From a virus (taxonomy: Duplodnaviria > Heunggongvirae > Uroviricota > Caudoviricetes), in the IMG/VR virus record IMGVR_UViG_2713896899_000019, positions 1-19,056 of that record: a DNA stretch of 19,056 nt; one strand, 5' to 3'. The position numbers and the translations under genes are program-made. The first letter of the stretch is position 1; every line of letters starts with the position of its first letter. The notes under the pieces were generated by a model. That model was not told the DNA's origin and did not search any database. It was given only the letters and a program-made list of their open reading frames with translations. Below, piece after piece: positions 4,980 through 13,972 of the stretch.

Positions 4980-5160
4980 CGATTTCCTCCAGATCAGGAG
5001 CGATTACCTGATATCCCGCTTTCTTTGCTATCCATAAGAAGGTATCCATGCTGGCAATCATCTCGTTATTGTGAACTTTACGGGTATTTATTACCTGACC
5101 ATTTTCAATCGTCATAATGATCTGTACTTTTTCGTGTATAAGAGGGGATAAATCAGACAT
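4951..5160 (-). CDS. Hypothetical protein (69 aa)
   Basis: ORF with a TGATG stop/start overlap with the upstream 119-aa gene. Confidence 0.55.
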   Translation of the reverse strand: MSDLSPLIHEKVQIIMTIENGQVINTRKVHNNEMIASMDTFLWIAKKAGYQVIAPDLEEIGDINSNTNS

Positions 5161-5519
5161 CAGTTAATTCCTCCACTGATATATTTCTCTTTTACGTAGT
5201 CAACAACCTCTTTTAAAAGGCCGTCCACTATCAGTTTCCCTGATTCAGTGAGATATTCCGTGTGTTGATTAATACCGATGGCATTCTGGTATGCGGTACG
5301 GATTGTTGCTTCTCCTTCCGTCCGTCCATATTCAACACGGGTAAGACCCTCAAATCGTAATAACAACTGGTTCATGAACTGTTCAGTTATTTCTATCGTT
5401 GTTATTTCTCCGTCCGGGAGGTCAACGACGAGCAGATTACTACCTGTTTTACGTTGCATCCGCCGGAGTGCCGCTGTTACCATGCGGCGACGATCTTTAT
5501 AAATGGTTGTACATGCCAT
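5160..5519 (-). CDS. Hypothetical protein (119 aa)
   Basis: ORF in the operon. No family recognised. Confidence 0.6.
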   Translation of the reverse strand: MACTTIYKDRRRMVTAALRRMQRKTGSNLLVVDLPDGEITTIEITEQFMNQLLLRFEGLTRVEYGRTEGEATIRTAYQNAIGINQHTEYLTESGKLIVDGLLKEVVDYVKEKYISGGIN

Positions 5520-5522
5520 TTG

Positions 5523-5621
5523 TTATTTCCCGTATGCTTTTCTGAGAAACAGTATTGCAACTGACCAGTATCCTGCATTAGCCATTAATAATGCGGTTTT
5601 ATAAGCGTTTCTATTTTTCAT
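5523..5621 (-). CDS. Candidate 32-aa membrane peptide (MKNRNAYKTALLMANAGYWSVAILFLRKAYGK)
   Basis: Hand translation. The ORF ends 3 nt before the start of the 119-aa gene and has a basic-hydrophobic-basic layout. Confidence 0.3.
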   Translation of the reverse strand: MKNRNAYKTALLMANAGYWSVAILFLRKAYGK

Positions 5622-5703
5622 GCATCACCATTATTTTCTGGTTGTGGAAATCCACGACCAGAGGCCGTCATGTTTTTATGTGTGATTTTTTACTGAATGT
5701 TCT

Positions 5704-5895
5704 TTATTCGTTGCGTAGTGTTTCTATATACTCGTAAGCCATTTCACAGGTCTTATTCATGGAGCGAATGAGACAGCATAAATAATCGTCTGTCTCTCCT
5801 TGGTCGGGCGAATTCTTAAATATAAATTCAAGCATTGATGTATTCTCTTTTATTTGTGCCGCCACTTCCTCAAGAATATTTAATGGAGTTATCAT
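5704..5895 (-). CDS. Hypothetical small acidic helical protein (63 aa)
   Basis: ORF with a 4-nt overlap with the upstream gene. It is the third gene of the PL-proximal trio. Confidence 0.5.
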   Translation of the reverse strand: MITPLNILEEVAAQIKENTSMLEFIFKNSPDQGETDDYLCCLIRSMNKTCEMAYEYIETLRNE

Positions 5896-6083
5896 GTTCT
5901 TTGCTCCTTAAATGCATCGCATGCGCTTCTGGCGTATTGTTGTGCCAGTAAAAAGATATCATCCGAAAGTTCATCACATTCTTCATCACCGGAAGCCGAA
6001 ATGATTAACCCCGCTTCAAGCAGTACGGCAATGTGATGAAAAGCTGTCTCCGGTTCGTTGGTAAGGCCTTTGAACATTTTCAT
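5892..6083 (-). CDS. Hypothetical small acidic protein (63 aa from MKMFKGL; the ORF track extends it to 6116)
   Basis: I prefer the ATG at 6083. It lies 1 nt after the TAA of the upstream gene and 10 nt downstream of AGGAGG. The longer version would overlap the upstream gene by 32 nt. Confidence 0.5.
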   Translation of the reverse strand: MKMFKGLTNEPETAFHHIAVLLEAGLIISASGDEECDELSDDIFLLAQQYARSACDAFKEQRT

Positions 6084-6084
6084 C

Positions 6085-6501
6085 TTATGCTTCCTCCTGA
6101 TTTTGTTTATAAGCATCAGTCAATAACAACATTGGATCACAGCCAAGAACATTAGCCAGAGGGATAAGCATGCTGATGGTTGGTTCGTACTCTCCGCTTT
6201 CCCACTGGATGATGATTTCTTCATCGAGGTCGAGCAGTCTGGCGAGTTCGGCTGTTGTTAAGCCGCAGTCTTCGCGTTGGGTACGAAGACGGTTGTTGAT
6301 TGCAGAATTTTTGTTCTGTAAAAGCATTGCTGACGATAGCTTTCTGGATATGCTATTTGTCATATCCCATGCCAGTCCTGCGCATGACTCTATATCGCTA
6401 GAGAGCGTAGCATCTGGTGTTGCTTTTGCTATTAGTGTAATGAGGCTGCCGAGGTTTTTCAGTTCTTCGAGACAGTCAAGAGTTGTAGCTTTATTGATCA
6501 T
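6085..6501 (-). CDS. Two-domain protein with an unknown helical N-terminus and a C-terminal XRE-family helix-turn-helix (138 aa); first gene of the PL operon
   Basis: The C-terminal sequence (LRTQREDCGLTTAELARLLDLDEEIIIQWESGEYEPTISMLIPLANVLGCDPMLLL) is a textbook XRE HTH. The start lies about 25-30 nt downstream of the predicted PL transcription start. Confidence 0.65.
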   Translation of the reverse strand: MINKATTLDCLEELKNLGSLITLIAKATPDATLSSDIESCAGLAWDMTNSISRKLSSAMLLQNKNSAINNRLRTQREDCGLTTAELARLLDLDEEIIIQWESGEYEPTISMLIPLANVLGCDPMLLLTDAYKQNQEEA

Positions 6502-6505
6502 GAGA

Positions 6506-6584
6506 TGATACCTCAGTTACGAACTTTGCTTCATGGTAACTAAGGTATCAAGGTGTGGCAAGTGATTTTTGATACTTTGGTTTC
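6506..6584 (-). promoter_or_regulatory. OL/PL: leftward early promoter overlapped by three copies of a TGATAC-N4-GTTAC operator
   Basis: On the minus strand the -35 is TTGCCA (6556-6561), followed by a 17-nt spacer and a -10 TACCAT (6533-6538). The operator-like 15-mers are tgatacctcagttac at 6506-6520, its near-identical copy in inverted orientation at 6536-6550 (between -35 and -10), and tgatactttggtttc at 6570-6584. Confidence 0.55.
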
Positions 6585-6604
6585 TTTTTGTGTTTTGTGT
6601 CTGG

Positions 6605-7261
6605 TCAGAAAATATCCCACCTGGCATCAACCACAACACCTACTATTTCGCAATCATTGTCCATTTCTATGATTGGATATTGTGGATTAAGGGGCTTTAG
6701 AAACGCCTTTCCCATTTCAGAAATATATTTTTTGAATGTTGCTTCATTGGTAGATTTTTTTCTGGCGATGACGTAACACCCTGAAAAAACTTCTTTATCT
6801 GGGTTGACAAGGATCGACATTCCTTCAGGAAATGTTATTCCTACGGGCGAAGTCATTGAGTCTCCGTGCACTTCCAGCCAGAACCCCCTCTCTCCAGCGT
6901 ATTTTACAGAATGCCTCCAATTATCCTGATCATACATGTTGTAGTCATCACCAGCAGTTGCGAATAATCCTGCCTGAACCCAGTTAATTACAGGGTAAGA
7001 GTGTGCTGTGTCTCTCTGTGGGCAGCTCTTAACATTATTTTCCCAATGCTTATCTTTTTCATCTCCGTTCTGAAGCCACTGCGGTGAACACTGCAGTGCA
7101 GCTGCGACTTTAAAAAGGGTGTCACCGTTGAAACTTTTTGTAAGGCCTTGCTCGGCTTTACTGATTGCAACTCTGGTGACCCCTGCTTTTTTAGCCAACG
7201 CATCTTGCGTTAACCCAGCTTTTTGTCGTGCGTTGATGAGGCGTTCACCTAAAGATTTCAT
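6605..7261 (-). CDS. cI: CI-type prophage repressor: N-terminal XRE HTH plus C-terminal S24/LexA-like autopeptidase (218 aa from MKSLGERL)
   Basis: The HTH is QKAGLTQDALAKKAGVTRVAISKAEQG. The C-terminal GDSM Ser motif and a downstream Lys (TFKKY) are typical of the S24 family. The gene is divergent from a cro-like gene. I prefer the ATG at 7261 (AAGGAG 8 nt upstream) over the 243-aa ORF-track start at 7336, which would run through the operators. Confidence 0.85.
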   Translation of the reverse strand: MKSLGERLINARQKAGLTQDALAKKAGVTRVAISKAEQGLTKSFNGDTLFKVAAALQCSPQWLQNGDEKDKHWENNVKSCPQRDTAHSYPVINWVQAGLFATAGDDYNMYDQDNWRHSVKYAGERGFWLEVHGDSMTSPVGITFPEGMSILVNPDKEVFSGCYVIARKKSTNEATFKKYISEMGKAFLKPLNPQYPIIEMDNDCEIVGVVVDARWDIF

Positions 7262-7284
7262 TTTTCTTCTCCTTTCATGGCTGC

Positions 7285-7356
7285 TGATACTAAAGTAACA
7301 GAATTTCTTGATACTTTGGATTCTCGCGTTTAACATTCTTGGATAACAGAGTATCC
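7285..7356 (+). promoter_or_regulatory. OR/PR (and probably PRM): rightward early promoter with three operator copies of the same family as OL
   Basis: PR has a -35 TTGATA (7308-7313), a 17-nt spacer and a -10 TAACAT (7331-7336). The 15-mers are tgatactaaagtaac at 7285-7299, tgatactttggattc at 7309-7323 (overlapping the -35), and an inverted-orientation copy at 7342-7356 (ggataacagagtatcc, with palindromic ends) over the predicted start site. Confidence 0.6.
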
Positions 7357-7372
7357 GGTGTGAGGCTAAAGA

Positions 7373-8129: not shown

Positions 8130-8498
8130 ATGAGTGAAGACCTGAAGCAAAATTTAATCGCTCTCCTGGAAGAGCAATTCATTCGCTCCGATGACAAAGT
8201 CGTTTTCGATTATGTGATGCAGAAAAAAATCAAGTCTCAGGGATACCATCTGCAACGCAATTTCAGCATCAGCATTAGCGGTGGTCGTAAAGGGTTTATT
8301 GATTGCCTGGTTACATCATCAGACGGCCAGCAGTGTGCCATTGAGGTCGATAAGAAGTCTCCCCGCAACCGTTCGTTGATGAAGCTGGCTCAGCTACCTG
8401 AGGGGATGTCAGGCTTTGTCCTGCTCAGGGATGGTAAGCACCCTCTTCGATATAGCGAGAACGGAATTGACGTTATTCGTGCGACGAAATTTAAGTGA
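8130..8498 (+). CDS. Small protein with a possible PD-(D/E)xK nuclease-fold motif (122 aa)
   Basis: ORF upstream of the helicase. The segment GFIDCLVTSSDGQQCAIEVDKK has the D...E-x-D-K-K spacing typical of restriction-endonuclease-like folds. This was recognised by eye only. Confidence 0.5.
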   Translation: MSEDLKQNLIALLEEQFIRSDDKVVFDYVMQKKIKSQGYHLQRNFSISISGGRKGFIDCLVTSSDGQQCAIEVDKKSPRNRSLMKLAQLPEGMSGFVLLRDGKHPLRYSENGIDVIRATKFK

Positions 8499-13018: not shown

Positions 13019-13040
13019 AAGCCCCTTTCGGGGCTTTTAT
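13019..13040. terminator. GC-rich hairpin terminator shared by the convergent Q gene and the orphan gene
   Basis: The stem pairs aagcccc (13019-13025) with ggggctt (13030-13036) around a tttc loop, followed by TTTTAT on the plus strand and flanked by an A-run on the other side. The stop codon of the minus-strand gene is at 13040-13042. Confidence 0.65.
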
Positions 13041-13972
13041 CATTTCAGCCCTTTTAAAAAGCGTTCGAAATTATGGAATTCAAGTTCATCCGCTGTCGAT
13101 GAGTATTTTATTTTGTTTGCGATGGGACGCAGATTTTTTTTAGTTAGGAATTTACTGGCTTCATGTTTCAGTTTTTTTAATCGCTTGATTCGTTCTTCGA
13201 TTGAACTGGCAATTTTGGCAACATTAGAAATTTCTGGGCTTGGGGCTGTTTGTAGATCAATACACTGAATTTTTTTTAGATCTTCTTTGAGCGCAACAAA
13301 AAAATCACGAAGATTGTTTTCTGGTAAAAGAACATGACTAAATGATACTTTTCCTATGTAGAATTCACTTATTGCCTCTCCAGACTCGCGCATGTGTTCA
13401 TTCATTGCGAACAGAATTGTTTTGGTATTCTTATCAGTTTCCACTTCAGAAAGGGTTACAAGGCCTGTCTGGCTCTTGGTCAAAAAACGAATTTCTGTAG
13501 CACCAAGTCTTCCGGAGTAATTGGAATTTTTACTATTTTCGATGGTAGAAGATAGATAATCTATTGTGGGTTTGATATTTCGTATCGTTTCAATATTTTT
13601 TTGCCACTCTTCACATTTACTTTTTGCGGTGCTAATAATTTCCCGATTGGTTTCGAGTTGCATAAATTTATTGAAACTAAGAACGTTTTCACCAAATTCC
13701 ACACCAAATTCGTTTTTACCACATTTATTTCCGATGTTGGTTTCAATGCCACTAGATGTTTTTACAATATAACCCATTTGATGTGGTTGGTTGCAACCAG
13801 TTAGACCACAGTGGATTTCTTCTTTAAATTTGTAGTAACCAATTATCTCCTCAAGTTGTTGAACTCCTTTGTCTATAGTGGTGACAAAGTTTGGTCTGGA
13901 TATAATTTCCTCCCAGTTTTCAAGTTTCTCGATGCCGTTTTCAGTTCTGAGAAAAATCATGAATCGCTCCAT
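13040..13972 (-). CDS. Orphan 310-aa protein of unknown function (alternative start at 13960, giving 306 aa); candidate moron/defence gene
   Basis: This is the only long minus-strand ORF in the rightward half of the window. It is markedly AT-rich: spot counts of 60-nt lines give about one third G+C, against about one half in Q. GGAG lies 6 nt before the second ATG (13960). A terminator hairpin sits immediately 3' of the gene. I recognise no family. Confidence 0.75.
   Translation of the reverse strand: MERFMIFLRTENGIEKLENWEEIISRPNFVTTIDKGVQQLEEIIGYYKFKEEIHCGLTGCNQPHQMGYIVKTSSGIETNIGNKCGKNEFGVEFGENVLSFNKFMQLETNREIISTAKSKCEEWQKNIETIRNIKPTIDYLSSTIENSKNSNYSGRLGATEIRFLTKSQTGLVTLSEVETDKNTKTILFAMNEHMRESGEAISEFYIGKVSFSHVLLPENNLRDFFVALKEDLKKIQCIDLQTAPSPEISNVAKIASSIEERIKRLKKLKHEASKFLTKKNLRPIANKIKYSSTADELEFHNFERFLKGLK

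Follow-up and report, generated by a model that had tools for sequence, protein, structure and literature searches.

We analyzed a window of 19,056 nucleotides (nt), the whole stretch of DNA taken from the Caudoviricetes record IMGVR_UViG_2713896899_000019, which is an Escherichia coli lambdoid prophage, and focused on three minus-strand genes that follow its cI-type repressor gene: H (6085–6501), encoding an acidic protein of 138 amino acids (aa), and S2 (5892–6083) and S3 (5704–5895), each encoding a stand-alone hairpin protein of 63 aa. Sequence comparisons show that H is modular, with a two-helix hairpin of ~55–60 aa placed on a near-invariant XRE-type helix-turn-helix (HTH) core and swapped between phages. 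They also show that S2 is homologous to the hairpins of types C1, C2, and D, and S3 to the hairpin of type E, which are fused to the same HTH core in other phages. We consider this account of the anatomy and evolution of the three genes very probably correct. Region 5500–6700 is 99.8% identical to chromosomal prophages (e.g., EC2 and SCU-106) and was found in 302 of 5426 complete E. coli genomes. It is mosaic among sequenced phages, phi467 having 5500–6285 in common with the window and phiP27 having 6117–6700, and it is the part of the early-left (PL) operon of this phiP27/phi467-like lambdoid prophage that lies nearest the promoter.

The C-terminal part of H belongs to the XRE/HTH_3 family both by the curated profile cutoff (Pfam HTH_3, PF01381, aa 72–123: E = 1.6e-10, 41.3 bits against a cutoff of 23) and by the five-helix XRE fold of its AlphaFold2 (AF2) model. 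The core of this model superposes on the N-terminal domain of P22 C2 with a root-mean-square deviation (rmsd) of 1.0 Å and 30% identity (Foldseek), and phmmer also relates the two (E = 4.6e-5). Foldseek matches to the H model ran through the HTH part only, and aa 1–65 had no Pfam match, as anticipated in an earlier sequence-only reading of this DNA, which had described the N-terminal ~60 aa as unknown. The mean predicted local distance difference test (pLDDT) score was 75.5 for the whole model and 83–89 for blocks of the N-domain, where the type A hairpin module (codons 1–60; 6322–6501, minus strand) is predicted to form a helix at 2–27, a loop at 28–30, and a second helix extending from 31 into the HTH. 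H matches phrog_4739 (E = 1.8e-83), a family annotated "unknown function," and its RefSeq name is only "helix-turn-helix domain-containing protein." Identification of H as DicA, RmrA, CapH, or similar proteins was rejected, the PADLOC and NCBIfam matches being to generic HTH domains and below the family cutoffs (DicA: 39.7 bits vs. 101). A literature search on L10, the H gene of phiP27, gave nothing relevant, and a profile search of genome contigs with the H alignment gave only two unrelated HTH matches and nothing on taxonomic breadth.

The HTH core of the H family (RTQREACGLTTAELARLLDLDEEIIIQWESGEYEPTISMLIPLANVLGCDP; codons ~73–128 of H, 6117–6285, minus strand) is nearly invariant, with 34 invariant columns over 16 alleles that carry eight N-terminal types. 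At least eight unrelated-looking N-terminal segments precede the core (A, B, C1, C2, D, E, F, and G), type A being that of the window and of phiP27, and type D that of phi467. The core is a common mosaic joint between phages: the limits of homology with phi467 and phiP27 fall at H codons ~73 and ~129, which are the two edges of the core. Many H alleles have a second HTH and are 215–230 aa long. Short one-HTH alleles (P0113, P0110, and P0143) end in GCDPMWLLTG... (alignment A1), and alleles with the MWLLTG ending look, from their sequence, like deletion products of long two-HTH alleles that arose when HTH1 and HTH2 recombined at their similar ends.

S2 matched the N-termini of C2 and C1 alleles (P0103 and relatives) in phmmer searches of a 142-sequence set (E = 5e-7 and 1e-5, respectively) and in hhalign comparisons (95.4% probability to C2, 82.6% to C1). 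The S2 and C hairpins align without gaps (alignment A4), and type D enters the same alignment. S3 matched the N-domain of the E-type allele P0097 (phmmer E = 5.7e-7; hhalign 95.5%; 33% identity). Jackhmmer searches started from S2 recovered C1, C2, and D together with free proteins of 66, 71, and 121 aa, and those started from S3 recovered E, giving three sequence superfamilies: {A, B}, {S2, C1, C2, D}, and {S3, E}. The last two occur both fused to the core and free. A fourth family, found only in free form (loci L084, L085, and L086), provides the strongest of the weak links to type A (hhalign 14.9%) and reaches 3.5% with S3; the type A hairpin is homologous to A and B only, by both hhalign and jackhmmer. 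A separate ~55-aa N-terminal segment with the motif ADIVI.G.K.VKNR was seen in P0149, P0177, and the 121-aa L08 of phiP27, and again between the HTH domains of the 333-aa relative P0155; on this sequence pattern it may be a second mobile mini-module. The C-terminal half of L08 is D-like (hidden Markov model E ~1e-10).

Within the window itself, H and S3 had been proposed, by eye, to share a duplicated helical module, of which S2 would be a weaker copy. Both of the words on which this proposal relied are present in H and S3 (LEE at H 11–13 and S3 8–10; K-x-T/S-P-D at H 26–30 and S3 27–31), but they are 15 residues apart in H and 19 in S3, and this difference of four residues means that a gap is needed to align both words, which excludes a joint ungapped alignment. 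BLASTP gave no alignment for any pair among H, S2, and S3. Between the H N-domain and S3, hhalign gave a probability of only 5.6% (P = 0.007) when small profiles were compared and of 3.1% (P = 0.014) for superfamily profiles, although both alignments set the P-D loops in register, and type A against S2 or S3 ranged from 0.3 to 5.6%. Furthermore, jackhmmer over 3299 distinct collected sequences never joined the H N-domain and S3. The paralogy of H and S3 is not supported statistically by these sequence comparisons, nor is S2 a weaker version of their module, its sequence placing it in another family. A helical domain duplicated with one copy fused to an HTH does exist, at the level of the gene family rather than through the H/S3 pair, whose similarity is sub-significant. 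Structure prediction agrees with the proposal in one respect, in that S3 (AF2: helix 2–28, loop 29–33, helix 34–62; pLDDT 91) has the same predicted two-helix architecture as the H N-domain, with the loop at residue ~28–33, but this is a generic fold as modeled, and Foldseek comparison of the S3 model with PDB and BFVD returned only generic helical hairpins (E above 0.17).

S2 is the longer of the two by mechanical translation (an open reading frame, ORF, of 74 aa), but we assigned it 63 aa because the ATG at 6083 lies behind AGGAGG and fits the MK.FKGL start of all homologues. S2 matches phrog_4587 (E = 1.6e-33) and S3 matches phrog_6882 (E = 7e-40), as well as positions 1–63 of the 138-position phrog_27579. 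The families phrog_4587 and phrog_6882 are annotated "unknown function," and RefSeq labels both proteins "hypothetical protein." No match to either protein was found in Pfam, NCBIfam, or PADLOC, a search of PDB by sequence returned nothing below E = 0.7, and neither showed profile or fold similarity to Ral, Ocr, ArdA, or other antidefense families (Pfam, NCBIfam, and PDB; the S3 model by Foldseek). Both genes show purifying selection in sequence comparisons (pN/pS, the ratio of nonsynonymous to synonymous polymorphism, is 0.14 for S3, where pS reaches 0.61 for the pair that differs most, and 0.20 for S2). The notion that S2 and S3 are frameshifted remains of the second HTH of long alleles was dropped, the alignment being to the N-terminal hairpins and not to HTH2.

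Synteny was assessed in 96 loci in which an H gene is followed by 900 nt or more of sequence; they were drawn from IMG/VR, from three phages, from the window, and from the distant relatives L086–L097. In 94 of the 96 loci, H is followed on the same strand, no more than 1 kb downstream, by an ORF belonging to the S2 superfamily or the S3 family; in L035, one of the two exceptions, an ORF that by eye resembles an insertion sequence transposase lies just downstream of H. S2 and S3 are found together in 27 loci, and the 66-aa D-like free protein sits behind long two-HTH alleles. The S2/C/D hairpin profile matched only 53 proteins among 1.84e9 (1.84 billion) representatives, ~33 of them free-standing (at most 95 aa) and ~14 long enough for fusions. 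When nine of the longer proteins were tested against Pfam, every one had one to three XRE HTH domains behind the hairpin. H-family genes are also present in Stx1a-, Stx2a-, and Stx2d-converting phages and in phiP27 (Stx2e). In phiP27 (L002), an 80-aa ORF (MKNCDAYHICLIGELLD...) overlaps the stop codon of H and recurs in L021, L023, L055, and L058; the RefSeq record of phiP27 shows only L09, on the opposite strand, below L10. By eye this looks like another helix-loop-helix protein, with no significant link to the other hairpin families.

The operon reads, on the minus strand, cI-type repressor (6605–7336; Pfam HTH_3 and Peptidase_S24), a 103-bp gap, H, S2, S3, a 32-aa micro-ORF, and a 119-aa gene. 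The TAA stop of H is separated by one base from the ATG of S2, and S2 and S3 overlap by 4 nt in ATGA. The isoelectric points (pI) are 4.34 for H, 4.45 for S2, and 4.31 for S3, in keeping with the earlier description of a 138-aa ORF followed by two tightly coupled acidic proteins of 63 aa. Directly upstream of H, in the gap that separates it from the cI stop (6605), is a putative PL-like sigma-70 promoter (6533–6561, minus strand; TTGCCA-17-TACCAT, 9/12 consensus matches), which is overlapped by operator-like repeats. These form a putative OL (6505–6582) with three repeats of TTGATACYTYRGTT at 6505–6518 (plus), 6538–6551 (minus), and 6569–6582 (plus), and the inverted repeats I3 and I5 are located within it. 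In a pattern search of the 19-kb window, copies of this 14-nt motif with zero or one mismatch occurred only at the putative OL and at 7308–7321, with a weaker copy (three mismatches) at 7288–7301 (minus) in the cI/cro divergent region. A 20-nt direct repeat (6566–6585 and 7305–7324) is 90% identical between the two regions, and the plus strand at ~7286–7300 also resembles, by eye, the OL arm TGATACCTCAGTTAC. Direct reading of the divergent region gives a putative OR with operator-like repeats and a palindrome (7286–7357), and a consensus scan gives a PR-like TTGATA-17-TAACAT at 7308–7336. Repeats at both the cI–H gap and the cI/cro region are the arrangement expected of OL and OR, and this sequence evidence supports placing H in the position of lambda N, first behind PL, as had been claimed; that this first gene is not N-like also stands (pI 4.34; only HTH profiles match; no N-family or arginine-rich motif). 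The longest cI ORF has 243 aa, compared with 218 aa in the homologues phiP27 L11 and Stx1-phage CI, so that the real start is likely, by sequence, the internal MKSLGERL near 7261, leaving a divergent control region of ~110 bp. No terminator was predicted between cI and H, so read-through from PRM may occur in the lysogen.

By itself a two-helix hairpin lacks a core and normally packs into bundles with partners, as in Rop. Such a hairpin is for this reason expected to be an oligomerization or partner module, and we suppose that the hairpins of this family would be helix-bundle oligomerization or partner domains. Helix 1 of each hairpin is 50–60% hydrophobic, with such residues all round the helix, which suggests burial in an oligomer. 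We infer that S2 and S3 may be partner subunits of H-type proteins, because longer hairpin proteins are fused to XRE HTH domains (a Rosetta-stone argument) and because of how two-helix hairpins behave physically. On this reading, free hairpins and H-type proteins that have a hairpin, whether from the same prophage or from related ones, would form mixed bundles, and these would determine the oligomeric state of the early regulator H, and with it how active H is, immediately after derepression, by a logic like that of SinI on SinR and AimX on AimC. A regulator with partner proteins, which the sequence-only reading had given as its alternative, appears to fit best, given the free hairpin at 94 of 96 H loci and the nine of nine fusions to XRE HTH domains; we hold it as a tentative reading, by analogy, and with rather less than even confidence.

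The closest parallel in logic is SinR/SinI (and SlrR/SlrA) of Bacillus subtilis, where an XRE regulator is accompanied by an adjacent ~60-aa homologue of its two-helix oligomerization module, the two forming a mixed oligomer. An XRE HTH and a two-helix module are also found here, the small proteins are homologous to such a module in other alleles of the family, and a heteromer would be expected by analogy. The two systems differ in that the helical module is N-terminal here and C-terminal there, so that the domain order is reversed, in that there is no sequence relationship (no Pfam SinI/SinR match), and in that the small genes here are downstream and translationally coupled rather than separately regulated. 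They also differ in that the free hairpins here are homologous to the modules of other alleles and not detectably to the one in cis (hhalign up to 95% for S2 with C1/C2/D and S3 with E, against 0.3–5.6% for type A of the window). One report describes SinI as mimicking the oligomerization helices of SinR (PMC3163267).

In arbitrium phages, AimX blocks AimC oligomerization (bioRxiv 10.1101/2025.11.23.689978). That system too has a small helical protein beside an HTH protein in the lysis-lysogeny region of a phage, and the binding and blocking by AimX is a feature of AimC. The host there is Gram-positive, however, the proteins are unrelated, and the target of AimX is the main repressor, whereas the protein here is an extra HTH protein in the N position, with no signaling peptide system. 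Transcription factor–small ORF (TF-smORF) modules of linear plasmid-like phages place a transcription factor, often of the XRE type, beside a small domainless protein that controls lysis-lysogeny (Silpe et al. 2023, Nature; PMC10432266). The likeness is again a phage transcription-factor-like gene, often XRE, next to a small protein without known domains. Their genes, in contrast, are divergent, the small one is activated by the transcription factor, and it inactivates the phage's own cI, whereas those here are co-directional behind PL (1-nt gap and 4-nt overlap) and encode paralogues of the regulator's type of module, with one cassette accompanying five cI types. The resemblance to lambda N is one of position only (first gene behind PL/OL beside cI), H being acidic with an XRE fold and without the N-family or arginine-rich motif. 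Small early proteins follow in the same operon, as Ral, CIII, and Kil do in lambda and P22, but Pfam and NCBIfam gave no matches to these here. In its logic the module is like the known cases in which an XRE regulator has a small paralogous partner, but its sequence is unrelated, it lies at the opposite end of the protein, it is swapped in many types, and it occurs in the N position.

Several observations weigh against S2 and S3 as partners of a DNA-binding H. The HTH domain of H has a net charge of −7 and a pI of 4.09, and its recognition helix starts with D-E-E, compared with net charges of +6 for the HTH of the cI in the same window and +5 for the N-terminal domain of P22 C2; acidity extends to long and distant H alleles (pI 4.7–4.8). 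The core shares its fold with the N-terminal domains of the P22 C2, 434, and lambda repressors but differs from them in this charge (−7 vs. +5 or +6), in the recognition helix (D-E-E vs. S-N-V or T-R-V), in having no S24 peptidase domain, and in the tandem second HTH of many alleles. The "canonical XRE HTH" of the sequence-only reading is such by profile and fold, but with a domain this acidic DNA binding is not to be presumed, and it may be that H is no DNA-binding regulator. Neither S2 nor S3 is significantly similar to the type A hairpin of H in cis; if bundles need like with like, they would not pair with it. Co-transcription and translational coupling suggest that the proteins are made in a fixed stoichiometry, and not that there is an antagonist regulated on its own, as SinI is. 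A near-identical S2–S3 cassette is found behind H alleles of five N-types (A, C1, C2, D, and G). The genes of the trio also occur in part independently of each other: phiP27 has H without S2 and S3, though with other hairpin ORFs, and phage SaltyDalty and the Klebsiella phage ST16-OXA48phi5.3 have S2-like or S3-like genes after cI with no H, which implies that hairpins can work without H. In these two phages the S3-like hairpin continues into a C-terminal part that is unrelated. Against this stands the free hairpin at 94 of 96 H loci, a sample that is itself redundant, with many near-identical E. coli prophages.

Possible, though we think it unlikely, is that the hairpins are independent early effectors, active in host takeover, antidefense, or inhibition of a DNA-binding protein, the proteins being small acidic helical binders, each of some host or rival target, of which the one in H happens to be fused to an acidic HTH fold. 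The acidity of all three proteins (pI 4.3–4.5) and of the HTH of H, the immediate-early position behind PL, and the hairpin genes without H in SaltyDalty and the Klebsiella phage are all consistent with this. So is the hypervariability of the family, which comprises several types that look unrelated, and in which one operon can hold as many as four free hairpin genes (L086). On the other hand, all nine longer S2-type proteins tested are fused to XRE HTH arrays and never to another domain, and synteny with H is near-obligatory (94 of 96 loci). Similarity to known anti-restriction or antidefense families was not found in Pfam, NCBIfam, or PDB, and Foldseek found generic hairpins, which is absence of evidence only.

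A less likely explanation, which we regard as improbable, is that the hairpins are antirepressors acting on CI, with the H hairpin, and possibly S2 and S3, inactivating CI and the free ones directed, in polylysogens, against CI repressors of different immunity types. There is a documented precedent for small proteins that inactivate cI and are encoded beside an XRE-type transcription factor (Silpe et al. 2023; PMC10432266), and for six types each N-type goes with one cI cluster (1:1 covariation). The C2 short (L081) and C2 long (L095) loci have cI proteins that are 98.8% identical, type A alleles are alike in this respect whether short or long, and type A is accompanied by three different downstream arrangements. 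The link between N-type and cI survives downstream exchange, which places the H hairpin in the immunity module. This covariation could reflect a functional tie to cI, Cro, or the operators, and could equally reflect mere linkage, being expected from adjacency when recombination takes place in the conserved HTH core. The S2–S3 cassette is found with five unrelated cI types and so is not specific for its own cI, which indirectly disfavors, on this sequence evidence, inactivation of the phage's own cI in the TF-smORF manner. Moreover, the proteins would be made from a CI-repressed promoter, when CI is already inactive, and the genes are co-directional and coupled rather than divergent.

More doubtful again is that the hairpins form a specificity code in conflict between prophages, in which each immunity group would have a private H hairpin, and S2 (C/D-like) and S3 (E-like), being of foreign types, would serve as dominant-negative decoys against the H or the cognate repressors of rivals. 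We give little credence to a literal duplication, in which S2 and S3 would derive from the N-terminus of this phage's own H. The predicted hairpins do match, with the loop at the same position, and weak hhalign similarities are in register (H N-domain with S3, P = 0.007–0.014; H N-domain with the fourth family, 14.9%; S3 with the fourth family, 3.5%). BLASTP found nothing, though, jackhmmer holds the three superfamilies apart, S2 and S3 are nearer to the N-domains of other alleles (25–35% identity), and the cassette is common to phages whose H has another N-type. That S2 and S3 are nonfunctional remnants, left when tandem H alleles recombined or underwent gene fission, might be argued from the high mosaicism of the family, the short H forms that look like HTH1/HTH2 recombinants, and the existence of truncated gene calls (P0082 is P0097 minus the hairpin), but it is effectively refuted by the purifying selection described above (pN/pS 0.14 and 0.20; pS as high as 0.61), and intact ORFs with ribosome-binding sites and coupled starts in hundreds of genomes also speak against it.

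The hairpin genes are followed in the same operon by the 32-aa micro-ORF (5523–5621, minus strand; translation MKNRNAYKTALL...FLRKAYGK, full form MKNRNAYKTALLMANAGYWSVAILFLRKAYGK), which has syntenic homologues of 35–45 aa in L084, L085, L086, and L089, recognized by eye. The homologues (..AYKTA..LRKAYG.) are from phage SaltyDalty, the Klebsiella phage ST16-OXA48phi5.3, and two distant prophage groups. From this sequence conservation the micro-ORF is probably a genuine small gene of the H operon. The 119-aa gene (5160–5519, minus strand) matches phrog_1737 (E = 1.1e-51) and is the last gene of the conserved block in all related loci, with syntenic counterparts of 117–121 aa in L084–L089 and in IMG/VR loci. 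Elsewhere in the window, a 122-aa ORF (8130–8498, plus strand) matches phrog_1347 only at positions 149–271 of 417 and may, on that partial match, be a truncated or split gene; the 552-aa gene just downstream of it has counterparts in phi467 and a Klebsiella phage annotated as type I restriction R subunit and DEAD/DEAH-box helicase. A 310-aa ORF (13040–13972, minus strand) lies in an island of low GC content (0.35–0.37, vs. ~0.50 around it) between the replication and late regions. It had no match in PADLOC or NCBIfam and looks like a moron.

The H family occupies the N position of many E. coli prophages, those of Shiga-toxin phages included, and is a clear case from nature of domains being exchanged while the core stays constant, with fused and free versions existing together. 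If the hairpins are independent effectors, they would make up a compact and diverse set of candidate binders of host or phage targets. If the decoy code were true, the H proteins or cognate repressors of rival lambdoid prophages in polylysogens, including Shiga-toxin phages, would be poisoned, and the winner after induction would be decided in this way. If the hairpins are instead partners or antagonists of H-type proteins, they would represent a protein-level layer of control in the early-left operon of lambdoid phages that lack N, one that could bear on induction and toxin release.

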